From Oscillospiraceae bacterium (GTDB lineage: Bacteria; Bacillota; Clostridia; Oscillospirales; Oscillospiraceae), in NCBI GenBank assembly GCA_017419715.1, contig JAFOKO010000069.1, forward strand, positions 345-64,344: a stretch of 64,000 bases of DNA, given 5' to 3'. Of this stretch, positions 6,249 through 57,791 are shown one piece after another. The position numbers and the translations under genes were made by a program. The notes below the pieces were generated by a model. That model was not told the origin of the DNA, searched no databases, and was given only the letters and a program-made list of their open reading frames with translations. Positions within the stretch are counted from its first letter, which is position 1. Each line of letters starts with the position of its first letter.

Positions 6249-6746
6249 GGCAATAGGAGACGCGGGGGTGCGGACGGGGAGCAGGATTCGGTAGCGGCGC
6301 ACGGCGCGGGACGGAGGAATCCGTCCCCTACAGGTGCGGTGCGTTTGTCGGAACAGCTCAATCCAATCGGTGCGCCCCTCATCCGGCCCTTCGGGCCACC
6401 TTCCCCCCTCGGGGGGCTTTACGGGGGCGCGTCCTTTGCCTTCCCCCTCGGGGGAAGGTGGCGCCGGGCGTCTCACGGAAGCCCGGTGACGGATGAGGGG
6501 CGTTGCGGCTTCGCACTGCTTCCCCGCCTGTCATTCTGAGCAAAGCGAAGAATCCGTACCTCCCGTCCCCTTGCCTTCCCCCTCGGGGAAGGCTCTGGGG
6601 GCGCGGTGCAGGTTGCGGGCGGCCAATGGGCCCCTACGGGGTGCGGTGCGTTCGACGGGGGCGGACGGCAGGGTGCCGTCCCTGCATGGTCGGGACGCTC
6701 GGGGCGTCGGGGACGCCGCCCCCTACATTCCGCGTCTCCTATTGCC
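6249..6746. repeat. GC-rich, highly structured, non-coding element bounded by inverted repeats (MITE/REP-like composite), inserted between aepZ and aepX.
   Basis: 17-bp perfect terminal IR: GGCAATAGGAGACGCGG (6249-6265) with CCGCGTCTCCTATTGCC (6730-6746). Two nested perfect 13-bp IRs: 6373-6385 with 6490-6502, and 6395-6407 with 6450-6462. Many short G/C hairpins. ORFs here are short, overlap on both strands, and are low-complexity P/G/R-rich. Confidence 0.7.
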
Positions 6747-10390: not shown

Positions 10391-10466
10391 TGGAGCGGGT
10401 GACGAGGCTCGAACTCGCTACCTCCACCTTGGCAAGGTGGCGCTCTACCGGATGAGCTACACCCGC
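10391..10466 (-). tRNA. tRNA-Gly (anticodon GCC), CCA encoded.
   Basis: Minus-strand sequence: GCGGGTGTAGCTCATCCGGTAGAGCGCCACCTTGCCAAGGTGGAGGTAGCGAGTTCGAGCCTCGTCACCCGCTCCA. The 7-bp acceptor stem pairs. The anticodon stem is CCACC/GGTGG with loop TTGCCAA. The T-loop is TTCGAGC. Confidence 0.92.
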
Positions 10467-20405: not shown

Positions 20406-21914
20406 TTAATGATTCTGAATCCATTGTTTGTAAGGTGTGAACTGGAAAGTAATGTCTCCACATTTGCTGTAATAATAGAATGACCCTATTGCACCTATAC
20501 TTGCATCTCCGTGGATATATCTTGGATAGGGATAGCCAGGTAGTTCAATCACGCTATCTCCACGCTGCATTGCCTCTTCGGCGATCTGGACACGGAGCCG
20601 CTCAACGGAACCGTTTTTGAAGTGGATCCACATATTCCCAAGCAGAAGCAGACAAGACGCGAGTATCATGGCCGATGCAATCTGCTTGATTCCGTCCCAA
20701 TCCATTGTGGCCTGTCGAAGCAGTGTCATCATAATAAGGATCAAGAGTGCATCAAAAAAGTAGGCGTTTCTTGGCCCCACCGGCTTAACGACAAGCAACG
20801 GCGCCATAAAGACCAGGAATGTTCCAGCCGCAACGAAGAGGACAAAGCGGGCATTGATGTTCCGAATACAACTGTATGCCGAAAAAGCAATCGCAACAAA
20901 CAGGCCCAGATCGATCAAAAAATCAATTGCAAACATATAGCGGCCGACATAATGGATCCCATAGGACAACAGGGGGAACGCCGCATAATAGAGCAAACAG
21001 GCTTTGGAGATCAAGCGCTTTCCCTTTGTTTCCGAATTCGCTCTTACACAAACAAGCATCCCGCTTAGGCAAAGCGATATCACAACAAGATAGTTTTCCG
21101 TGATGATATACTCGGAAAGCTGAACAAAATTGTTCTTCGCAATCAGCAGGAGATCGGCGAGCCCGGAAGCCTGATTCCGATAGCCTTCCAGGCCGACATT
21201 GTGGTATCCGGGCGCAAGAAACATCACGATACAGCCAATGACAGTTCCCGCAAGATGCGCGGCCAGCGTCCAATCTATCCGTTTCTTGCGAAGCAAATCC
21301 GTTACAAAAAGGGCGGCAGAAAGGGCGCACATACCGACGGAAATGTTTTCCATAAAGAATTGCGTAGACAATCCCAAAAGGAAAAGAAGCGCAATCCACC
21401 CAAAGGAATGCCGACGCAAATCATCACAAATAACTTGTTTTGCAAAACCAAAATAGAAGAAAAACAGCAGTACAGGGGGAACATAGTTAAAAAAACCCGC
21501 CGCCCAAGTATAGGTTTGAGACACCACCCGGGCGGGCATCGCAACCAGCAAAGCAAAACACATCAGATAGCTGGCAAAGCTCCGGTTTCCGGAAAGCCGA
21601 AAAACACAAAGCAAGATGAAAAGGATCACACCACAGCGAAATAACTCTCGGAGGATCTTCTGAAGGAAGAAAGTCACCAAAAAATTGCCAAGAAGGCGCC
21701 CGTTGGTCGTTTGATAATGCTGAAGCGACACATCAATTGCACGGCGAAGCTGCTCTCCAAAGCTTAGACTCGTTCCGGGTTTCGGGTAAAAATGCCAATC
21801 GTCTCCCGTAACCGGGAATCCATACGACATCAAAAGCAGAAGTACATAGGATAGAATCCCCCAAAAGAATACCTTCTTGCGATAGGATAGCTCTTGCGAG
21901 CGCTGTAATCTCAT
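20406..21914 (-). CDS. Polytopic integral membrane protein, possible GT-C-fold glycosyltransferase. Low-GC relative to its neighbours.
   Basis: 502 aa with ~12 hydrophobic segments. There is an acidic motif TGDDW just after TM1. The start overlaps the recN stop by 4 nt, and the stop is 13 nt from the tyrS start. Individual 60-nt lines counted by hand give ~37-45% GC here, against ~67% in recN. Confidence 0.5.
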   Translation of the reverse strand: MRLQRSQELSYRKKVFFWGILSYVLLLLMSYGFPVTGDDWHFYPKPGTSLSFGEQLRRAIDVSLQHYQTTNGRLLGNFLVTFFLQKILRELFRCGVILFILLCVFRLSGNRSFASYLMCFALLVAMPARVVSQTYTWAAGFFNYVPPVLLFFFYFGFAKQVICDDLRRHSFGWIALLFLLGLSTQFFMENISVGMCALSAALFVTDLLRKKRIDWTLAAHLAGTVIGCIVMFLAPGYHNVGLEGYRNQASGLADLLLIAKNNFVQLSEYIITENYLVVISLCLSGMLVCVRANSETKGKRLISKACLLYYAAFPLLSYGIHYVGRYMFAIDFLIDLGLFVAIAFSAYSCIRNINARFVLFVAAGTFLVFMAPLLVVKPVGPRNAYFFDALLILIMMTLLRQATMDWDGIKQIASAMILASCLLLLGNMWIHFKNGSVERLRVQIAEEAMQRGDSVIELPGYPYPRYIHGDASIGAIGSFYYYSKCGDITFQFTPYKQWIQNH

Positions 21915-24921: not shown

Positions 24922-25722
24922 CTATTTTAACTCCTCATGGGCACTACAAACAATGGATCGCAAATCAGGCTCAAACGAAATACCGGGTTCCTTAGACAGG
25001 TGGCCTAAAAACTCGATGTTCCCCTCTGGTCCCTTGACGGGCGAAAAGCTGAGATTCTTGACGGTGAAGCCGATCTCATGCACAACGGAAAGGAAAGCCT
25101 CCAGGACCTCTCGGTGGACCTCCGGATCCCGAACGACGCCCTTTTTCCCGACCTTTTCCTTTCCCGCCTCAAACTGGGGCTTGATCAGGCAGAGCACCTG
25201 CCCGCATGGTTTCAGCAGGGAATAAATCACCGGAAGGACGATCCGAAGCGAGATGAAGGATACATCCACAACGGACAGATCCAGCGCTTCTCCCAGGTCT
25301 GCAAGCGTGACATCCCGGATATTGGTGCGCTCCATACAGACGACTCTGGGATCGTTGCGGATCTTCCAAGCCAGCTGGCCGTATCCAACATCAATGGCAT
25401 AGACCTTTCTCGCGCCATGCTGCAGAAGGCAGTCGGTAAATCCGCCGGTGGAGGCGCCGGAATCGGAGCAGACACAGTCCGTCGGGTCTACACGGAAATC
25501 CCGCAAGGCCTTTTCCAGCTTCAATCCGCCGCGGCTCACATAGGGACAGGCAACTCCGCGCACCTCGATCGACTGAGTTTTCTCTACGGAAAAGCCGGGC
25601 TTGTCCACCTTCTGCCCTTCCACATAGACCAGGCCGGACATGATCAGCGCCTGGGCTTTTGCGCGGGACGCCGCGTGACCCTGCTCCGTGAGCAGGATGT
25701 CCAGGCGTTCTTTCTGTTTCAT
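24922..25722 (-). CDS. tlyA: TlyA family rRNA 2'-O-methyltransferase (S4 domain + FtsJ-like methyltransferase).
   Basis: Start chosen at MKQKERLDILL (ATG 25720-25722, AAGGAG upstream). The longer ORF to 25896 would overlap dxs and encodes an R/P-rich nonsense extension. SAM motif: DSGASTGGFTD. Confidence 0.88.
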   Translation of the reverse strand: MKQKERLDILLTEQGHAASRAKAQALIMSGLVYVEGQKVDKPGFSVEKTQSIEVRGVACPYVSRGGLKLEKALRDFRVDPTDCVCSDSGASTGGFTDCLLQHGARKVYAIDVGYGQLAWKIRNDPRVVCMERTNIRDVTLADLGEALDLSVVDVSFISLRIVLPVIYSLLKPCGQVLCLIKPQFEAGKEKVGKKGVVRDPEVHREVLEAFLSVVHEIGFTVKNLSFSPVKGPEGNIEFLGHLSKEPGISFEPDLRSIVCSAHEELK

Positions 25723-25775
25723 ACAACAATGCTCCTTTGGGGAAAGTGGCGCGTGGGACGATGCGATGAAAGGCC

Positions 25776-27608
25776 TCATTTTTGAAGCAAAGCGAGGGCG
25801 GACTGGCGGATATGTTCCGCGTCCAAGCCGGCGCGGTGCAGCAGCTCCGGGACGGTTCCATGTTGAATAAAGCCTACGCCGAGGTCTAATCCGCACTTTT
25901 TTACGCCCGATAGGGCAGGATCCGCGGCGATCTCATCGAAAATACCGCTGTGCGTGGGGCACTCCTCCGCCATAAGAAAGGCGCCGGTTTTCCGTGCAGA
26001 GCTTTTGCATAGCGCTGAAATGGGCCGAATCGTGTTCAGCTTTACGACCTCGGCTTCTATGCCATCGGCGGCAAGGAGATCTGCCGCGTCCAGGACGGGA
26101 TTGATCATCGTGCCGTAGGCGCAGAGGGTGATGTCTCTTCCCTGCCGCAGGATCGGTTCCGTGCATTGCTCCGTATAGCGTCCATCCCCGCCGCGGGGAT
26201 AGCGGATCGCAACCGGTCCTTCCAGTTCCAACACAGCAGTCTTCAGCATAGATACCAGCTCCGCCTGGTTGGCGGGACAAAAGATCTTCATGCCCGGAAC
26301 TTGCCGCAGATAGCCCACATCGAAAACGCCGTGATGCGTCTCCCCGTCGGCGCCGACCAAGCCGGCCCGATCCACAGCAAACACCACATGGAGGTTCAGC
26401 AGGGCAACATCATGGATCATCATGTCAAAGGCCCGCTGCAGGAAGGTGGAATAGAGTGCGACCACAGGGATCATTCCCTGCTTTGCCAGGCCTGCCGCCA
26501 TTGCCACCGCGTGGCCCTCGGCGATTCCAACATCTCCAAAGCGCTCCGGGTACTTTGCAGCAAAGGGATCCAGTCCCGTACCGCTCTGCATAGCCGCTGT
26601 AATGGCACAAACCCGCGGATCCGCATCGGCCAGCGCGGTAAGCGCTTGCCCAAAGCTGTCGGAAAAGCAGGGCTTTTTGCCGGCAAGCGGCACGCCCGTT
26701 TTGGGGTCGAACGGACCAACGCCGTGGAAGCGATCCGGGTTCTTCTCTGCCGGGGCATAGCCGCGTCCCTTTTGTGTGATCACATGCAGGATCACCGGCT
26801 TTTTCAAGTCCCTTGCCTGCCGGAGCTGCCAGGTAAGCTTTTCCACATCGTGACCGTCCACAGGCCCAAAATACTCATAGCCCATGTCGTTGAACATGTT
26901 GGAGCTGATCAGGCGCTTTTTTAAGCCTTCCTTGACATGATGCACCCCATTGTAGAGCGCGCGGCCGAATTCGGTGTTTTTTGTGGCGGAACGCCAGGCT
27001 TTTTTGAGCTGATAATAGCTGGGCTTTTGACGGATATTTGACAGATGCTTTGCCATAGCGCCCACATTCGGCTTGATGGACATACCGTTGTCATTGAGGA
27101 TCACGATCAACGGTTCGCCGCTGGAACCGGCATCGTTCAATCCCTCGTAGGCCAGTCCGCCGGTCAAAGCGCCGTCCCCCATCAGGGCAATGACATTATA
27201 ATCGTCGCCCCGGAGGGTCCGCGCCCGGGCCATGCCCAGGGCAACAGAAACCGAATTGGAGGCATGCCCGGCAATAAAGGCGTCATGCTTGCTTTCGCTC
27301 GGTTTTGGGAAGCCTGCAAGACCATCCAGCTTTCGCAGTGTCGGAAAGCGCTCCGCCCGCCCGGTCAAGATCTTATGCACATAGGATTGATGTCCCACAT
27401 CAAAGACAAGGCGATCTTTGGAGGTATCAAACACGCGGTGGATCGCAACTGTAAGCTCTACCACGCCAAGGTTGGACGCCAAATGCCCGCCGGTCACAGA
27501 GACCTGCTCCACGAGGAAGCTTCGAATCTCATCACAGAATGCACGCAACTCCGTTTCATTCATGTCTCGAAGCGCTTCTGTGGATGGAATATGAATGAAG
27601 TCTGTCAT
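25776..27608 (-). CDS. dxs: 1-deoxy-D-xylulose-5-phosphate synthase.
   Basis: 610 aa. GGHLASNLGVVELT...DVGHQSY.HK...GDGALTGG.AYE.LN. Confidence 0.94.
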   Translation of the reverse strand: MTDFIHIPSTEALRDMNETELRAFCDEIRSFLVEQVSVTGGHLASNLGVVELTVAIHRVFDTSKDRLVFDVGHQSYVHKILTGRAERFPTLRKLDGLAGFPKPSESKHDAFIAGHASNSVSVALGMARARTLRGDDYNVIALMGDGALTGGLAYEGLNDAGSSGEPLIVILNDNGMSIKPNVGAMAKHLSNIRQKPSYYQLKKAWRSATKNTEFGRALYNGVHHVKEGLKKRLISSNMFNDMGYEYFGPVDGHDVEKLTWQLRQARDLKKPVILHVITQKGRGYAPAEKNPDRFHGVGPFDPKTGVPLAGKKPCFSDSFGQALTALADADPRVCAITAAMQSGTGLDPFAAKYPERFGDVGIAEGHAVAMAAGLAKQGMIPVVALYSTFLQRAFDMMIHDVALLNLHVVFAVDRAGLVGADGETHHGVFDVGYLRQVPGMKIFCPANQAELVSMLKTAVLELEGPVAIRYPRGGDGRYTEQCTEPILRQGRDITLCAYGTMINPVLDAADLLAADGIEAEVVKLNTIRPISALCKSSARKTGAFLMAEECPTHSGIFDEIAADPALSGVKKCGLDLGVGFIQHGTVPELLHRAGLDAEHIRQSALALLQK

Positions 27609-28225
27609 TTCTGTATTTTTTTCTTTCTTAAAAACAGATGCTTAAAACGCCAAATCAGTTTTGCAGCGCAATGTACAATGCTTGTGGAATAATCCAGGGC
27701 AATTTGCTTGCAGAAAGCCTTTCCCAGGATCGTCAAAGCAGCAACCAATGCGGAAAGCAGCAGCTGAATCACCTGCTGAGGCAGACTCTGCGTACTCTTG
27801 TAGGCCTCCAGGGCAACCACGGCGGCAGCCGTGCCGGAGATGATCCCGCAAATATCCCCTACCACATCGTTGCAAACGGAAGATACCTTTCCCGCATTTC
27901 GAAGCAGCCAGATCCCCTCCGCACCGCCGGGAACCTTCCTGGCGGCCATGGAGTGGAAGGGCTTTTCTTCGGCAGCGGTGACTGCCACGCCCAGCATATC
28001 AAAAAAGATGCCGATCACAATAATGGAAAGCAGGATGAAAAACGCGCCAAGCAGAGATGCCGCGTTCAGTAGTTCCTGAGAAAAGAAGGAAAAAGCGGCG
28101 GAGATCAGCAATGCCATCAGGAAAATGGAAATGAGCCAATGCAATTGGGAAGCGGTCTTCCCGCCGTTTCGCGTTTTTCGGTGTTTTGGGTCTGGTTTAT
28201 CGGATGGATCGTGTTTTGATTTCAA
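27605..28225 (-). CDS. oapA: Small 4-TM membrane protein, candidate OLE-associated protein A (OapA).
   Basis: 206 aa. TTG start with a GAGGAAG RBS. Basic N-terminus, four hydrophobic segments, and a D-x-x-x-D pair (CNDVVGDICGIISG). It lies 33 nt downstream of the OLE candidate and overlaps the dxs start by 4 nt. This is the position reported for oapA in OLE-containing Firmicutes. Confidence 0.6.
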   Translation of the reverse strand: MKSKHDPSDKPDPKHRKTRNGGKTASQLHWLISIFLMALLISAAFSFFSQELLNAASLLGAFFILLSIIVIGIFFDMLGVAVTAAEEKPFHSMAARKVPGGAEGIWLLRNAGKVSSVCNDVVGDICGIISGTAAAVVALEAYKSTQSLPQQVIQLLLSALVAALTILGKAFCKQIALDYSTSIVHCAAKLIWRFKHLFLRKKKIQK

Positions 28226-28258
28226 GGGTTTTCTTCCTCTGTCAAATCTTGTTGAAAT

Positions 28259-28862
28259 GGTGGTAATACTTGAAGTAAATCTTGCGGCTTAGGTCGGGTT
28301 GGTTTTCCCCGCAGACAACCCGTCGTCGCCGAACGGGCAGTTCCCTTTTCATGCCTGTGTCGCGTCGTTGCCAGTACGCAATACCCGATTGCCACTGAGT
28401 CCGCACTGTAATCCTTCAAATATCCAATAAATGACTGCCTAGGTGTTTTCCACCCCGGACGCCGTCGATTCTTAGCCTCTTTTGCAGATACGGTTTCCAG
28501 AGAATATCGTCTTTGCCTGTGGCCACAGGTAAGTGCGCGTAACTCCTCTTTCCCCATCGTATCCACGCAAGGCAGGCTACACTGCACACAGCACGCTAAC
28601 CGCACCGCAATGCAGGTTCATCTCCTGTCCCGTACGCCGTCCTTGTCCACTGGATTGTGCGGCGGCCGCACGAAAACAGGTCTCCACGGTAACCGGGTCG
28701 TAACCCCCATGCCATTGAAGGCCGCCCGGAAACCTTAACCCCCAGCACCCACCCGAATCTGGGCGAAACAAGCAAGCACCAGGGACTTCATCGATATGCC
28801 CTTCAAAGGATTTTTAGGCCCTTCCTGGTAATCGTCGGTCCCGACTAGGATACAGCACCACC
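28259..28862 (-). ncRNA. ole: OLE (ornate, large, extremophilic) RNA candidate, ~604 nt.
   Basis: The 728-nt gap between the ispA stop and the oapA start holds only short, implausible ORFs. A dedicated promoter ends 6 nt upstream. The 5' GGUGGU (28862...) can pair with the 3' ACCACC (...28259) as a closing helix. There are many internal hairpins, for example CCUGUGGCCACAGG and GUGCGGC/GCCGCAC. Gene order xseA-xseB-ispA-[RNA]-oapA-dxs-tlyA-nadK-argR-recN matches the published OLE context. No covariance-model search was possible. Confidence 0.7.
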
Positions 28863-28868
28863 ACTTGT

Positions 28869-28897
28869 ATTGTAACATATTTCTTATAAATATACAA
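28869..28897 (-). promoter_or_regulatory. Sigma-A-type promoter directly upstream of the OLE RNA candidate.
   Basis: Minus strand: TTGTAT (28892-28897), 17-nt AT-rich spacer, TACAAT (28869-28874), then ACAAGT followed by GGTGGTG. Confidence 0.55.
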
Positions 28898-28953
28898 GAG
28901 CTATCATATACAGAATACTTTGAATTCGTAGATTTTCTACTTTTTGCACAAAT

Positions 28954-29832
28954 TTAGTGATCTCTATTTGCCAAATATTCAGCAGTTTCCCTTAAGGTCG
29001 TGGTATTCTCAAAGTCTTCCAGCGCTAAGCATGCCAATTCTGTCTGTGTTTCAATCAGTTTTTGGCAGCTTTCCAGCCCATAGAGCCGGACGAATGTGTT
29101 CTTTTGCGCATCGACCCCAACTGCTTTTCCAAGTTTTTCCGCATAGCCGATCACATCGAGCACATCGTCCCGAATCTGGAAGGCCAGGCCCACGCGGTCG
29201 GCATAACAACGGGCGGAAGTGCGCTGCGCGGAGCTTCCCCCGCCGCAGACGACCCCCATTTCGCAGGCTGCCCGGATCAGTGCTCCAGTCTTCCTGTGCT
29301 GAATATCCAAAACCTCCCGTTCGGTCAATTCCCGTTCTTCGGATTGAATATCTAAAACCTGTCCGCCCACCATGCCCCAGGGGCCGGCGTTCTTAGCCAG
29401 AATGCGCACGCAGGCCGCGATTCGCTCCGCCGGAAGCGGAGCGCTTGCCAGAACCGCAAAGGCATCCGTCAACAAGCCGTCACCCGCCAGAATCGCCATG
29501 GCATCCCCATAGACCTTGTGGTTGGTCAAGCGGCCCCGGCGGTAATCGTCGTTGTCCATAGCGGGCAGGTCGTCGTGGATCAGACTGTAAGTGTGAACCA
29601 GTTCAATTGCAAGGGCTGCCGGATCGGCGTCCTCCGGTCTTCCGCCGCAGGCCGCGCAGAACTGATAGACCAGAAAGGGACGCAGCCGCTTGCCGCCGGC
29701 CAGCAGGCTGTAATCCATCGCCTCGAACAGTTTCTCCTGGGGCTCGCCGTGTGCGGCATAGTGTCCGGCGAGCAGGGCTTCAAATCGGGCGTTGGATCCC
29801 GCCCAAATCTCAGTTAGCTTCTTCATTGGCAA
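28954..29832 (-). CDS. ispA: (E)-farnesyl/geranylgeranyl diphosphate synthase (polyprenyl synthetase family).
   Basis: 292 aa. First DDxxD region: LIHDDLPAMDNDDYRRG. Second: FQIRDDVLD. Confidence 0.9.
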   Translation of the reverse strand: MPMKKLTEIWAGSNARFEALLAGHYAAHGEPQEKLFEAMDYSLLAGGKRLRPFLVYQFCAACGGRPEDADPAALAIELVHTYSLIHDDLPAMDNDDYRRGRLTNHKVYGDAMAILAGDGLLTDAFAVLASAPLPAERIAACVRILAKNAGPWGMVGGQVLDIQSEERELTEREVLDIQHRKTGALIRAACEMGVVCGGGSSAQRTSARCYADRVGLAFQIRDDVLDVIGYAEKLGKAVGVDAQKNTFVRLYGLESCQKLIETQTELACLALEDFENTTTLRETAEYLANRDH

Positions 29833-31252: not shown

Positions 31253-32218
31253 TTATGATTTCACATTCTGCTTGAGCCAGGCCAGGATGGCAATGCCCAT
31301 GGCATTGTCCGTAGAATACCGGGGCGCTCCGAAAATGGCTTCCGGGAGCATGCGGCGGAGCAAAGAATTGGAAGCCACGCCGCCGGAAAAGAGGATCGGA
31401 AGCTCCCGATCCTTCCGGGCGTTTTTCGTTGCCTTCTTTACGGCTTCCGCCACGGAGCGGAGGGCAAAATACGCTGTCTCGCCTTCAGAGGCCCCCCTTT
31501 CCCGGTAGGCGCGGACTTGATTCTCCACGCCGGAGAGAGAGAACTCGCAGGCGTTGACCTTGACGCGGAACCATTCTTGGCTTCGGGCGCAGGAGGATAC
31601 AGATTCTTCGCTTCGCTCAGAATGACAGCATTGGGAAGCAGCGGCATCCAAGGCCTTCCCGGCCGGGAAATCCAGCCCGAGCAGTTGCCCTGTGCGGTCG
31701 ATGAGCTGGCCTGCTGAAATATCTGTCGTGCCGCCGATCTTCTCACAGTCGATCTGCCCGTCCGCCGTTGTGCGAACATGCAGCAGCTCCGTGGTGCCCC
31801 CGGAAAGATGCCAGGCAAGGAATTCCGAGCCAAGCAGCTCCAGCTTTCCCGCCGACCAAAGAACAGCGGCGATATGCCCCTGCTGATGGGAAAACTCATA
31901 CAACGGAACATGCAGGGCGGAGGCCAGCACGCTTGCCTGGGATGCGCCCGCCAAAAAGCAGGGCATATAAGAACCCTCCACAGCCCTGGGCCGTGTGCTA
32001 ACGCCGACGGCAGATATTTTTGAGGTTTCCACACGCACAAAGAGCCTGTCGGATAACTCCGGCAGGCGCTTGATGTGTGCGAACAGCGCATCCGATTGAC
32101 GGAGGCCCAATTCTCCGGCTTTCACCGGCAACAGTTGAGAGACATTGTCTCCCACTGTACCGTCGAAGGCCGCCACAGATGTGGTATAGTTGCTGGTGTC
32201 AAAGCCCAGGCAGATCAT
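31253..32218 (-). CDS. TsaD/Kae1 (peptidase M22, ASKHA-fold) family protein carrying an in-frame repeat-derived insertion.
   Basis: 321 aa. ICLGFDTSNYTTSVA...SHQQGHIAA...LSGGTTELL...FSGGVASNSLLR. Residues ~AASQCCHSERSEESVSS are encoded by the ~50-nt repeat module also found at 6516-6563. Confidence 0.7.
   Translation of the reverse strand: MICLGFDTSNYTTSVAAFDGTVGDNVSQLLPVKAGELGLRQSDALFAHIKRLPELSDRLFVRVETSKISAVGVSTRPRAVEGSYMPCFLAGASQASVLASALHVPLYEFSHQQGHIAAVLWSAGKLELLGSEFLAWHLSGGTTELLHVRTTADGQIDCEKIGGTTDISAGQLIDRTGQLLGLDFPAGKALDAAASQCCHSERSEESVSSCARSQEWFRVKVNACEFSLSGVENQVRAYRERGASEGETAYFALRSVAEAVKKATKNARKDRELPILFSGGVASNSLLRRMLPEAIFGAPRYSTDNAMGIAILAWLKQNVKS
31592..31641 (-). repeat. ~50-nt copy of the GTCATTCTGAGCGAAGCGAAGAATC-type repeat module, embedded in frame in a CDS.
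   Basis: Minus strand: CTGCTTCCCAATGCTGTCATTCTGAGCGAAGCGAAGAATCTGTATCCTCC. Plus strand at 6516-6563: CTGCTTCCCCGCCTGTCATTCTGAGCAAAGCGAAGAATCCGTACCTCC. Aligned by eye, there are a few substitutions and one small indel. Confidence 0.8.
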
Positions 32219-34691: not shown

Positions 34692-35773
34692 AGGTTCACC
34701 GTCCGAATACAGAGTACAAGGGTCATCAGCGCCAGCAGGCAGGCGATGGCGCTCAGGGCAAGCATCAGGCCAAGCGCCTGGGAGAGTTTTTCCAGCAGCG
34801 GACTCTGGCTGCCCTTGCCGAAGAGGCTGCACAGGCCCGCGGCCAGGCGCAACAGCAAATACTGCAGGCCCATCCGAACGAATGGCGCAAAGCAAATGCC
34901 AAACACCGCCAGCATGCCGTACAGCCCTATCCCGGTCCGAAGTTGCGACGCCACACTGATCAAGGAGGCGGACGCCTCCGAAACAATGTTCCCCACCACA
35001 GGCACCATCCCCGCAATGGCAGAGCGGACCGACCGAAGCTTTTGCCCGTCCACTGCCCCGGAGATCAATCCCGTGAAGGACATGATCGCGGCATAGGCCC
35101 ACATCAGCAGCTTGACCCCCGTCACCAGCAGCCATTTGAGATAATCCCGAAAGCCGGACAATTGCATCAATCCAAGAGCAGCTTCCGCCACGCTGAGCAG
35201 CAGAAACAGATACAGCAGCGGCACGAGCAGACCGGAGGTCAAAGACAGGAGCAGTTGCAGCAAAACCATTCCAAGCCCGGAAACAGCGGAAGCACGCAAG
35301 CTGCCCGATGAAGCCATCAAAGTGCCCATGCCTGGCAGGAGCAGCGCGCAATAGTTCTGCAGCGCCCGGATCGTCTCCGTCCCAAGCGCGATCATAGAGC
35401 CCAGTGGGCGCACGCAGGCTGCAGCAATGGTCAAGCCCCCCACCAGTGGAACGGCCGATTTTCCCCGAGGGCAGTCCTCCAGTAAGGCGCAGAACAGGGC
35501 GGAAGCCAGGATCAAGCCAAGGGTGCGAAGACCGTCCCCAAAGCCAAGCTCGTCGATCTGCCCCAGCGTTTTCCCAAGCATGGAGAGCAAACGCGCACCG
35601 AAGCCACTCACCGTGCCTTCGTAGGGACCGATCTCGTCCACAAGCTCCGCAGACAGGCCCTGTTCCGGGTCGATCCCTTCCTCCAAAGCTGATCGCAGAT
35701 CCGACGCTTCTGCCCGAAGGGGCAGCACAGAAAGCATCATCCAAACCACACAGAAGCTTGCAAGGATTCTCAT
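34688..35773 (-). CDS. spoIIIAE: Stage III sporulation protein AE.
   Basis: 361 aa from the ATG at 35771-35773 (MRILASFCVVWMMLSVLPLRAEA, a signal-like sequence), followed by a polytopic membrane domain. It has 4-nt overlaps with both neighbours. Confidence 0.8.
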   Translation of the reverse strand: MRILASFCVVWMMLSVLPLRAEASDLRSALEEGIDPEQGLSAELVDEIGPYEGTVSGFGARLLSMLGKTLGQIDELGFGDGLRTLGLILASALFCALLEDCPRGKSAVPLVGGLTIAAACVRPLGSMIALGTETIRALQNYCALLLPGMGTLMASSGSLRASAVSGLGMVLLQLLLSLTSGLLVPLLYLFLLLSVAEAALGLMQLSGFRDYLKWLLVTGVKLLMWAYAAIMSFTGLISGAVDGQKLRSVRSAIAGMVPVVGNIVSEASASLISVASQLRTGIGLYGMLAVFGICFAPFVRMGLQYLLLRLAAGLCSLFGKGSQSPLLEKLSQALGLMLALSAIACLLALMTLVLCIRTVNL

Positions 35774-36156
35774 AGCAGTTCCTCGATCAACGCAAGGATC
35801 GCCTGCAGCAGCGGTAGGCTTACCACAAGGCAGAGCAGACTGCCGCCCAGCTCCGCCAGCTTGGCAAGCGCGGACTGGCCCGCATCTGCGCAGACGGAGG
35901 AAGTGAGCTCCGTTAGCAATCCAAGACCAAGGCATTTCCAAAGCGGGGCGATCAGCTTGTCCTCCAGCTCTGCCTTGGCAGCAAGGGAAGCGGCCAGAGA
36001 CAGGACCGGATCCAGATAGGAAAAGAGCAGACTGGCACCAAGCGCGCAGGCGGCAAGGGTCAAAACCAGGCTCAACTCGGGGCTCTGCTTTTTCAACACC
36101 AGGGTCAATAAGGTCGCCGTCAATAGTATGGCGGAAAGGCGAAAAGAAGTATCCAT
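35770..36156 (-). CDS. spoIIIAD: Stage III sporulation protein AD.
   Basis: 128 aa, small polytopic membrane protein in the expected operon position. Confidence 0.78.
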   Translation of the reverse strand: MDTSFRLSAILLTATLLTLVLKKQSPELSLVLTLAACALGASLLFSYLDPVLSLAASLAAKAELEDKLIAPLWKCLGLGLLTELTSSVCADAGQSALAKLAELGGSLLCLVVSLPLLQAILALIEELL

Positions 36157-36350
36157 CAGAAATGAAACAGGTCCTTGACCAGAGCAAATAGCTCTGCAAT
36201 TTTCTCCACCACGATCATCAGCACCACAACCAGGCCTGCCAGGGTCGTCATCGTCGCCTGCTCCTCCCGCCCCGAGCGGACCAGGACCTGGTTGAGGATG
36301 GAGATAATGATCCCCATTGCAGCAATTTTAAAAATCAGATCAATATCCAT
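36156..36350 (-). CDS. spoIIIAC: Stage III sporulation protein AC.
   Basis: 64 aa, two TM segments. IFKIAAMGIIISILNQVL.RSGREEQA....LAG..VVL is typical of SpoIIIAC. Confidence 0.82.
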   Translation of the reverse strand: MDIDLIFKIAAMGIIISILNQVLVRSGREEQATMTTLAGLVVVLMIVVEKIAELFALVKDLFHF

Positions 36351-36865
36351 CAGAGCACCAACACCAGCACAGCCGCTCCAGCCGTCAAGCCCAGCACCTC
36401 GTAGGTCCTGCAGCGTCCCTCCATTTGCCCGGAGAGCTCTCCCGAGAGGGCCGCCAGCTCCTCCGAGGCCAGGTGGATCTGCCGAAGCTGCCCCTCTCGG
36501 TCAAAGCGGCCAAATCCGTCAAACAGTCGTTCCAAAGCGAGGCGGGCCGAGGACGGCAACAGCATCCCAGCCTCCGCGCAGGCCCGGCAGGTCAAGCCTT
36601 CCGGCGCAAAATCCGGCTTTTCGCCTTCCCGCGCCAGGACCTCAAAAAATCGGCGAACCGCTTCCGTTCTCCCCTCTCCCGCCCGGCGGCAGAGCGGCAC
36701 GAAGGGGGGCGCTGCAAAAGAGATCTCCCCCGCAATCAGCTCCAGCGCCGCAGCAAGCTCCCGAAGCGTTTCATGCGTCTGCCGCAGACGCAAGGCAGCA
36801 TGAAAGCCTGCCCAAAGGGACGCCGCCAGGATCAGTCCCGCCCCTGCTATTTTGCAGTAATCCAT
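36350..36865 (-). CDS. spoIIIAB: Stage III sporulation protein AB.
   Basis: 171 aa with an N-terminal TM (KIAGAGLILAASLWAGF), in the expected operon position. Confidence 0.72.
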   Translation of the reverse strand: MDYCKIAGAGLILAASLWAGFHAALRLRQTHETLRELAAALELIAGEISFAAPPFVPLCRRAGEGRTEAVRRFFEVLAREGEKPDFAPEGLTCRACAEAGMLLPSSARLALERLFDGFGRFDREGQLRQIHLASEELAALSGELSGQMEGRCRTYEVLGLTAGAAVLVLVL

Positions 36866-37745
36866 CGTTCATCCTTTCCCATGCAATGCTCCGATCCGGA
36901 AGGATCAGTGCGAGGTTTTCAAACACACGCGTCTTCAGAAGTTGACGGTAAAGCGGGCGGGCGGTAAGCTCCGCAAAGGAAGCAGCGTGCGCCGTGGCCA
37001 GAAAGCGAACGCCGCAATAGGCCGCCTGCTCCATGCACGATATATCGGCAGAAGCTGTGATCTCATCCAGGGCGATCCACTGGGGCGCCATCGTTCGCAC
37101 CAGCTGCTCGATGCCTGCAGCCTTTGGAAATCCGGTCAACACATCCGTGTGCTGTCCTACATTCAGCTGTGGGACGCCATTTCGGCAGGCAGCCAGCTCG
37201 CCTCGCTCATCCACCACGCCCACCCGCTGCCCAAAGCGATCTGAGCTTTGCCGGATCAGATCTCGGAGCACCGTTGTTTTTCCCGCCCCGGGCGGGCCCA
37301 GGATCAGCGTGGACGCCGGATGGTTCTGAATATGGAGCGCAAGGGCGTCGGCGCAGCCGTTTCGTTCCCCAGCAAGACGCACAGCCAGGGATTGATAGCA
37401 GCGGACTGTCTTGATCGTGCCATTTTCCACAGAGGCTGTCCCGCACAGGCCCAGACGGTGTCCGCCGCTCAAAGTCAAATAGCCCCTCCGAAGCTGCTCC
37501 TGCACCGCATAGGCCGCATTCCCCGACGCTCTTCGGACGATCTCTTCCAGTAGCTCCGGCGTGACCCGGGGCAGATTTTGTCCTCCCAAGCTCAGCTCCC
37601 GTCCGGCCATCCTCCAGCTTGCGGGAAATCCCGTTCGAAACCGAAGCTCCTCTACCCGGCCGCCTCGTTCTTCCAATAGCTTTTTCACTGCTTGCCGCAT
37701 GGGTTCCGGAAACAGCTCCGGAACTGTCTGCAATCGTTTGTCCAT
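36771..37745 (-). CDS. spoIIIAA: Stage III sporulation protein AA (AAA-type secretion ATPase-like).
   Basis: 324 aa. Walker A: ILGPPGAGKTTVLRD. Walker B-like: WIALDEI. The C-terminal ~31 codons overlap the spoIIIAB start in another frame. Confidence 0.85.
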   Translation of the reverse strand: MDKRLQTVPELFPEPMRQAVKKLLEERGGRVEELRFRTGFPASWRMAGRELSLGGQNLPRVTPELLEEIVRRASGNAAYAVQEQLRRGYLTLSGGHRLGLCGTASVENGTIKTVRCYQSLAVRLAGERNGCADALALHIQNHPASTLILGPPGAGKTTVLRDLIRQSSDRFGQRVGVVDERGELAACRNGVPQLNVGQHTDVLTGFPKAAGIEQLVRTMAPQWIALDEITASADISCMEQAAYCGVRFLATAHAASFAELTARPLYRQLLKTRVFENLALILPDRSIAWERMNDGLLQNSRGGTDPGGVPLGRLSCCLASAADA

Positions 37746-57438: not shown

Positions 57439-57791
57439 TGGTGGAGCTGAGGGGAGTTGAACCCCTGTCCGAAAACAACTTGGCAGGAACTTCTCCGGGC
57501 GCAGTTTGTTATTTGCATTCCCTCGACGGCACGGGAACAAACACCCTTACCGCCTTGGTAGCTTCATGATGCATGGTGCGGGCAAAGCTTACCGCACGCA
57601 CGGTCACCACTCAAATCACACCCGAGCCCCGGCTCGTGGTCCTTCCGGGGCGGATGGGCCGCTAATTAAGCAGCAGCCAGAACGAGATTATCGTTGTCAG
57701 TTAATTTAAAAAAGTTGCCCAGTTTAAGGAGGTTAGACACCTCCGCCCGCTATTCCAACCTCACTATCCCCGTCGAAACCGGTACAGCCCC
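57439..57791 (-). ncRNA. ssrA: tmRNA (SsrA), 353 nt.
   Basis: The minus strand starts GGGGCTGTACCGGTTTCGACGGGG and ends GGGGTTCAACTCCCCTCAGCTCCACCA. The acceptor stem pairs, with G3:U. The internal tag frame ends ...GAC AAC GAT AAT CTC GTT CTG GCT GCT GCT TAA, i.e. ...DNDNLVLAAA stop. Confidence 0.93.

Follow-up and report, generated by a model that had tools for sequence, protein, structure and literature searches.

A full-length OLE RNA and its membrane partner OapA in the interval between ispA and dxs of an Oscillospiraceae genome

The window analysed here is a 64-kb stretch of an Oscillospiraceae bacterium genome (GCA_017419715.1, contig JAFOKO010000069.1, positions 345 to 64,344), and its minus strand almost certainly carries a canonical full-length OLE RNA at 28862-28259, followed at 28225-27605 by the gene for the obligate membrane partner of this RNA, OapA. 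OLE, the ornate, large, extremophilic RNA, is among the largest and best-conserved bacterial non-coding RNAs of unknown biochemical function. A first-pass annotation, made from the letters of the window, had proposed a candidate OLE RNA in a 728-nucleotide (nt) gap between ispA and the next coding sequence. The minus strand of 27500-29100 was read directly and its open reading frames (ORFs) were listed; the ispA stop lies at 28954 and the next coding sequence starts with a TTG at 28225, which gives the same gap of 728 nt (28226-28953).

The entire window was scanned with Rfam 15, which returned three matches, one of them OLE. Model RF01071 matched 28877-28244 (minus strand) with 443.6 bits (gathering score, 50) and E = 5.7e-127; the match spans positions 1-616 of the 616 in the model, which includes short flanks, and is not truncated. 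The search with the OLE covariance model that had been suggested as a check was thus clearly significant, and the candidate in the gap proved to be a full-length match. With the structure line of the model projected on the window, standard pairs are found at 143 of the 156 model base pairs having residues on both sides, and the window sequence is identical to the consensus at 224 of the 249 upper-case (strongly conserved) positions. P7, P8, the long P9 and the P13 end all align to the model without deletion, so the RNA belongs to the full-length type and not to variant 1 or 2. Furthermore, its score is a mid-range one among 40 relatives (391-547 bits) and the RNA is therefore not divergent; the hint at a divergent representative was not upheld, since what the window holds is a typical full-length OLE. 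The host also fits the distribution of OLE, whose carriers are Bacillota and as a rule anaerobic or extremophilic, the nearest genomes being Oscillospiraceae, Faecousia, Oscillibacter and Clostridia metagenome-assembled genomes (MAGs).

The 13 model pairs that are non-standard, located in P5.1, P6, P9 and a few other helices, could be taken as signs of decay, as if the locus were a non-functional OLE pseudogene kept by linkage only. We regard this as extremely improbable: at most of these 13 positions the relatives vary too or are unpaired, 90% of the strongly conserved OLE positions are retained, the score is no lower than mid-range, the promoter is intact and conserved, and oapA is itself intact, none of the invariant residues of the family being lost.

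Strong support for a structured RNA came from covariation. The OLE sequence of the window and those of the 40 relatives (41 in all) were aligned with MAFFT, and pairs were counted for the Rfam structure plus the closing helix P1 (162 pairs). Standard pairs occupied 89.2% of the cells, compared with 76.9% in shuffled alignments and 40-46% when the partners were slid by 1-3 columns; pairs changing on both sides numbered 107 of 162, against 76.7 (shuffled) and 46-61 (slid); and the covariation score was 0.402, against 0.175 and about 0.10, respectively. None of 500 shuffles reached any of the observed measures. More than 190 alignment columns are invariant among the 41 relatives, in keeping with the extensive blocks of near-invariant positions (about 25% of the RNA) that mark the OLE family, and the ornate secondary structure of OLE (about 25 helices) is kept by covariation across these loci. 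Hence, comparison with homologous intergenic regions, another check that had been proposed, supported a conserved structure in the window and the other 40 loci.

The same comparison bears on whether the gap codes for protein. It had been described as holding only two short ORFs, which is incorrect, as the minus strand alone has frames of 127, 64, 59, 57, 54 and 47 amino acids (aa). If the 127-aa ORF (28605-28222) or another of these were real, the RNA match would be incidental. However, 100 or more codons are open from the equivalent point, in any frame, in only one of the 40 related loci, long runs free of stops, with a median of 128 aa, arise by chance in every one of these G+C-rich OLE sequences and in varying frames and strands, and conservation takes the form of paired columns with compensatory changes and not of codon periodicity. 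The public gene call (ENA ERZ28654457, scaffold_49) also leaves the gap empty. We therefore judge the short ORFs spurious, in line with the earlier view that the gap contains no credible ORF, and give a coding gap practically no weight against a full-length OLE RNA.

The gene downstream of the RNA agrees with the first description of it. The ORF encodes 206 aa, starts 33 nt past the ACCACC that ends the predicted RNA, and overlaps dxs by 4 nt (27605-27608). A GAGG ribosome-binding site (28236..28239, minus strand) ends 10 nt before the TTG start, and the same start, with an identical 206-aa product, is used in the public gene call, in which the protein has no family. Hydropathy indicates four hydrophobic segments, at about residues 25-53, 51-87, 121-139 and 148-173, and both termini are basic (K/R/H account for 10 of residues 1-28 and for 8 of the final 17). 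In the family search, HMMER against 1.84 billion representatives gave 1,059 clusters, and among the 95 members aligned D76, D120, G123, D124, G131, K169 and K173 are invariant; D120 and D124 form a DxxxD motif (D120-V-V-G-D124). The basic N-terminus, the four transmembrane (TM) segments and the pair of aspartates that had been noticed in the protein are thus borne out by hydropathy and alignment. Moreover, the functional importance of this pair, which had been put forward in the first-pass annotation, is confirmed by the OapA PM1 mutant (D100A + D104A) of Halalkalibacterium (Bacillus) halodurans, whose phenotypes are worse than those of deletion (PMC9723947).

No Pfam or NCBIfam family was found for the 206-aa protein at 1e-3, since OapA has no curated model; at a relaxed threshold the CNNM domain PF01595 appeared with E = 0.013 and 15.6 bits, under its 28.4-bit cut-off. 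A sequence search of the PDB returned noise only (E >= 0.3, complex I subunits) and no OapA chain. An AlphaFold2 model built from the family alignment (mean pLDDT, the predicted local distance difference test score, 89.5) consists of long helices, and its five best Foldseek matches in the PDB are all CorB/CorC CNNM transmembrane domains (7m1t, 7m1u, 7cff, 7cfg), with probability 0.98-1.00 and E = 0.012-0.42. The CNNM/CorB/CorC/MpfA Mg2+ transporters (PF01595; 7M1T, 7M1U, 7CFF, 7CFG) are the only meaningful fold matches. In PMC11332333, OapA is described as "weakly homologous" to the CNNM domain, the top fold match of H. halodurans OapA is likewise 7M1U, and DxxxD is the motif that distinguishes OapA from CNNM domains. 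Unlike these transporters, the 206-aa protein lacks CBS and CorC_HlyC domains and has the DxxxD that CNNM domains lack; it also has four TM helices, whereas CorB has three (PMC11332333). The protein has four TM segments and DxxxD, and together with its family residues, a modelled CNNM-like fold and the position directly after ole these features identify it as OapA and not as an MpfA-type transporter. A match to an unrelated family, which would have spoken for another identity, did not appear; the hallmarks are those of OapA.

Linkage between the RNA and the protein was consistent across genomes. A scan of 185,579 species-representative genomes with the family alignment gave no fewer than 566 loci that encode a relative, the best 80 of which belong to Oscillospiraceae, Faecousia, Oscillibacter, Avilachnospira, other Clostridia MAGs and Sporobacter termitidis DSM 10068 (L079). 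The closest species-representative genome among the matches listed has an OapA only 72% identical, so the organism of the window is absent from the representatives. Rfam was run on the 40 loci having a complete upstream flank, and in 40 of 40 a full-length OLE (391-547 bits) stands directly upstream of the OapA homologue on the same strand. In Oscillospiraceae and relatives, therefore, OLE was present in every genome tested.

A promoter of the sigma-A type had been proposed to end 6 nt before GGTGGTG, and its elements are indeed in place on the minus strand. The -35-like TTGTAT (28892..28897), read from the sequence, is part of a longer motif, CTTGTATATTYA, at 28887-28898; a 17-nt spacer separates it from TACAAT (28874-28869), which is followed by 6 nt (ACAAGT) and then by GGTGGTG at 28862. 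A TG at 28877-28876, not mentioned in the first-pass annotation, turns the hexamer into an extended -10, TGtTACAAT (28869..28877). Among the 41 OLE loci, 37 have a TTG 16-18 nt from a TGnTA extended -10 a few nt before P1; the consensus of these 37 anchored promoters is CTTGtATATTca..aa...TaTG.TAtaAT. A combined -35/-10/TG score of at least 9 was obtained in 24 of the 41 loci, whereas only 0.8% of positions drawn at random from these loci reach it. The extended -10 and the positional conservation in relatives point to a genuine ole promoter, and the start predicted from it, 6-8 nt past the -10, coincides with the start of P1. In H. halodurans, OLE owes a more than 100-fold gain in expression to a proximal promoter, its 5' ends lie near the P1 start, and it is partly co-transcribed with its neighbours (PMC3413148).

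Some observations weigh against this interpretation or parts of it. Folded as a single sequence, the RNA has an unremarkable energy (z = -0.85 in comparison with 20 shuffles), so thermodynamics alone would miss the region; the minimum free energy fold nonetheless recovers P1, P5, P6, P8, P9 and P12. The alignment behind the covariation figures took no account of structure, and the pairs that were counted derive from the window's own model fit, which favours register 0 somewhat. A generic sigma-70 scan of 27400-29400 called no promoter, because the -35 hexamer is weak, matching TTGACA at only 3 of 6 positions. In a terminator scan of the same interval, no intrinsic terminator was found on the minus strand, and thus none between ole and oapA, and consequently the 3' end of the RNA would have to arise by processing. 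Finally, the likeness to H. halodurans OapA comes from described features and the published fold match rather than from direct alignment, and the mechanism set out below is carried over from H. halodurans and from two Clostridium structures obtained by cryo-electron microscopy (cryo-EM).

By that analogy, ole would be transcribed from its own sigma-A-type promoter, with a start suggested by homology at about the first base of P1, and would probably receive additional read-through from xseA-xseB-ispA. Transcription probably continues through ole into oapA-dxs, the RNA of ~600 nt being released or defined by processing; ole, oapA and dxs are probably one primary transcript, since no terminator intervenes and oapA and dxs overlap by 4 nt. 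The latter two are also probably coupled in translation, as dxs overlaps the oapA stop by those 4 nt. The OLE RNA would fold and dimerise, dimers of OapA, which are CNNM-like and possibly handle divalent cations, would anchor it to the cytoplasmic membrane, and the ribonucleoprotein (RNP) would help the cell to cope with stress, which in the model organism comprises short-chain alcohols, cold, excess Mg2+ and poor carbon sources.

The lack of a terminator over the 33 nt that separate ole from oapA, and an overlap with dxs by which one transcript probably carries all three, would also suit an element acting mainly in cis, as a structured 5' leader of the oapA-dxs mRNA (riboswitch- or stabiliser-like) and not as a free-standing non-coding RNA. 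This seems to us very unlikely, although a little less so than a pseudogene or a coding gap. In H. halodurans OLE is a single, very stable and abundant product of ~600 nt, which functions in an RNP together with OapA and may also be provided from a distal locus (PMC3413148), and no known leader comes near a length of 600 nt with ~25 helices and conserved loops for dimer contacts. One role need not preclude the other, and the precursor of OLE may well be the oapA mRNA itself; as for the element, we continue to read it as a free-standing OLE RNA.

The predicted mature RNA measures 604 nt (28259..28862, minus strand) and is bounded by the two arms of P1, opening with the first base of the 5' arm and closing with the last of the 3' arm; both ends are putative. 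The closing helix between a 5' GGUGGU and a 3' ACCACC, and the resulting length of ~604 nt, had been correctly located: P1 joins 28862-28857 to 28264-28259, all six pairs form, and across the 41 sequences five of the six change on both sides and 98.8% of the cells are paired, with compensatory examples such as GGUGG/CCACC, GACGG/CCGUC, AGCGG/CCGCU and AAUGG/CCAUU. P2, drawn by hand, has six pairs, is near-invariant and without compensatory changes, and is omitted from the Rfam structure line. Also outside that line, P3/P3.1 was drawn by hand with its 5' strand at 28830..28841 and its partner at 28457-28470 (minus strand), giving 5 + 6 standard pairs, an A-A mismatch and a 2-nt bulge; in the MAFFT alignment it is 69.5% paired overall, the distal P3 covarying and P3.1 being poorly aligned. 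According to a proposal in the literature, P3/P3.1 crosses the membrane.

The loops assigned to OLE homodimer contacts, those of P4, P5.1, P6.1 and P9, are all present and are invariant or nearly so in the 41 sequences. The P4 hairpin (28805..28824) carries the A-rich loop CCUAAAAAUCC, invariant in 41 of 41, on a helix (helix 2) that is 98% paired. In the Rfam alignment, the P5/P5.1 hairpin (28739..28785) has the loop CGCCCAG, in which C113-G119 are invariant, and its helix (helix 3) has nine pairs with changes on both sides; the P6/P6.1 hairpin (28688..28734) has the loop CAAUGGCAUG, with AA.GGCAU invariant, and its helices 4 and 5 covary. The long P9 stem (28475..28573; helices 8-12, mostly paired and covarying) ends in the palindromic loop UGGCCA, of whose GGCC core the end G and C are invariant and the two central bases at least 90% conserved. 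PMC12265935 assigns the P4 A-rich loop to homodimer contact 1, describes the P5.1 and P6.1 loops as kissing-loop partners and the P9 GGCC loop as dimerisation contact 4; by analogy with these cryo-EM assignments, the loops of the window OLE would serve in dimerisation as well.

Between P6 and P9 lie the hairpins P7 (28624-28680) and P8 (28582-28615), which together cover 28582..28680 and correspond to helices 6 and 7, with 10 and 7 pairs changing on both sides; P7 contains, in a variable loop, an insertion of 14 nt that the Rfam model lacks. On the 3' side, the P13 hairpin (28360..28381) has a GNRA (GCAA) tetraloop and a bulge on its 5' side, and all five pairs of its helix 20 change on both sides. 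Since OapB binding needs the GNRA loop and bulge features of P13 (PMC7936274), P13 of the window OLE is the predicted docking site for OapB. It is followed by P14/P14.1 (28310..28359) with a GCGA tetraloop, whose helices 22 and 23 have 8 and 5 pairs changing on both sides, and which in H. halodurans is a weak secondary OapB site (PMC7936274). As regards OapC, the J4a/5 sequence AUCGAUGAAGU (28785-28795, minus strand) and the J5/6 sequence GUUAAGG match the consensus of the OapC k-turn region.

A departure from this region was observed among the relatives. An extra hairpin of ~20-25 nt between P5 and P6 is present in 11 of the 40 related OLEs, from the Oscillibacter, Avilachnospira and Sporobacter group (L014, L038, L054, L039, L047, L052, L079, L050, L057, L058 and L049; alignment A2, columns 85-95 and 142-168). 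In these, UUAAGG is replaced by UGCGG and mostly J4a/5 is altered as well, e.g. with AACUGUGAAAC in place of AUCGAUGAAGU; in H. halodurans, the OapC k-turn is built from the very nucleotides that are altered here. In the paper sections consulted, variants are described only for the J6/7-P8 region. The window OLE itself is without the P5-P6 change.

The one mildly new lead of the locus is a 12-nt motif, CTTGTATATTCA, which overlaps the -35 element of ole. Its form in the window, CTTGTATATTTA (28898-28887, minus strand), lies in a conserved stretch that reaches well past the -35 hexamer and is longer than a sigma-A -35 requires, and the ole promoter is the only place in the window matching CTTGTATATTYA with fewer than two mismatches. 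Of 81 loci, 13 contain the exact 12-mer, each of them once (L004, L005, L009, L012, L014, L016, L019, L027, L033, L037, L038, L054 and L059); in the eight of these 13 that were checked with Rfam and included in the 41-locus alignment, it stands just upstream of ole. An inverted TATACA or TATGCA is found about 22 nt upstream in some relatives, and a direct repeat, TGTATAT, 15 nt upstream in the window (about 28906-28912). It is conceivable, although we consider it rather doubtful, that the motif is the operator of a dedicated regulator; if so, it would offer a handle on the signal that switches OLE on in gut anaerobes that are not extremophiles. Two other candidates were rejected on comparison by eye with consensus sequences: an ArgR ARG box, for which the half-site spacing is wrong, and a sigma-E promoter, for which the -10 is unlike CATACAHT.

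The OLE/OapA system of H. halodurans C-125 has reportedly been studied by Puerta-Fernandez (2006), Block (2011), Wallace (2012), Harris (2018-19) and Lyon (2022-24). The window shares with it the RNA family RF01071, here as a full-length match, the position of ole directly before oapA inside xseA-xseB-ispA-...-dxs-tlyA-nadK-argR-recN, a proximal promoter a few nt before P1, a 4-TM OapA with DxxxD, and the features to which OapB and OapC bind there, the P13 GNRA loop plus bulge and the sequences of the k-turn region, respectively. The two differ in that H. halodurans is an alkaliphilic Bacillus, whereas the window host is an uncultured Oscillospiraceae-like anaerobe with 55% G+C that carries spoIIIA genes; DxxxD is at residues 100/104 in the former and 120/124 in the latter; and the H. 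halodurans system has been studied by experiment, while the window copy is known from sequence alone. According to PMC11332333, OapB (YbzG) occurs in ~60% and OapC (YbxF) in ~45% of OLE species; as a rule their genes are not linked to ole. A published survey of OLE comprises 2,822 Bacillota species.

With the OLEs of C. acetobutylicum and C. botulinum, solved as homodimers by cryo-EM (Kretsch 2025 and Wang 2025, in PMC12265935), the window shares the loop sequences of the four dimer contacts, namely P4 CCUAAAAAUCC, P5.1 GCCCA, P6.1 UGGC and P9 GGCC. In P3/P3.1, 11 pairs can be drawn here, which comes near the usual 12. OLE variants 1 (TANB77) and 2 (RF39) (Fernando & Breaker 2024, PMC11332333) are of the same family and likewise come from uncultured gut-type Bacillota that only metagenomes have revealed; in them P7-P9 are shortened or lost and the OapB site in P13 is often lost, whereas the window OLE keeps all of these. 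The locus is thus an ordinary instance of an already well-described RNA-protein system, and nothing in it departs from the published full-length type. Its practical value is that an "empty" gap of 728 nt becomes ole and a "hypothetical" membrane protein becomes oapA, and comparative models gain one more OLE sequence.

The gene order from xseA to recN that had been described was reproduced with Pfam and NCBIfam, which also placed nusB and a further gene before xseA, all genes being on the minus strand: nusB (32835-32215), a TsaD-like paralogue (32218-31253), xseA (31250-30024), xseB (30136-29810), ispA, ole (28862-28259 as predicted RNA, 28877-28244 as Rfam match), oapA (28225-27605), dxs (27608-25776; TIGR00204, 667 bits), tlyA (25896-24922), nadK (24913-24053), argR (24025-23573) and recN (23569-21911). 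The upstream neighbour of ole, ispA (29832-28954), encodes farnesyl diphosphate synthase (NF045485, 320.5 bits; PF00348). Upstream of the nusB-xseA-ole cluster, at 35770-37745 (minus strand), are spoIIIAA (PF19568) and spoIIIAC with spoIIIAD (PF06686), because of which the host is probably an endospore former; these genes agree with the published correlation between OLE presence and sporulation proteins.

Further observations concern other genes of the window. The TsaD/Kae1-family paralogue (31253-32218, minus strand), inserted between nusB and xseA, has 321 aa and scores 103.5 bits with TIGR03723; since this is far under the equivalog cut-off of 296, it is probably not the housekeeping TsaD. 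Within its ORF and in frame is one copy of a repeat with the core GTCATTCTGAGCRAAGCGAAGAATC (31602-31621, minus strand); the second lies at 6535-6554 (plus strand), which makes two copies in the window against 0.01 expected, and the copies share ~50 nt including flanks. Similar elements are common among the small repeats of Clostridia genomes. The longest tlyA ORF has 324 aa, begins with GTG and overlaps the end of dxs by 121 nt (24922-25896, minus strand), and the public gene call takes an internal start that gives 266 aa; as the S4 domain begins only at residue 63 of the long ORF, the long N-terminal extension is probably not translated. Directly after recN, with a start/stop overlap of 4 nt, is a gene for a DUF6056 multi-pass membrane protein of 502 aa (20406-21914, minus strand), in the slot that spoIVB occupies in Bacillus. 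Finally, the window holds a full-length tmRNA (57439-57791, minus strand; RF00023, 173.1 bits) and a tRNA gene (10394-10466, minus strand; RF00005, 65.2 bits), the latter overlapped by a spurious ORF of 93 aa.

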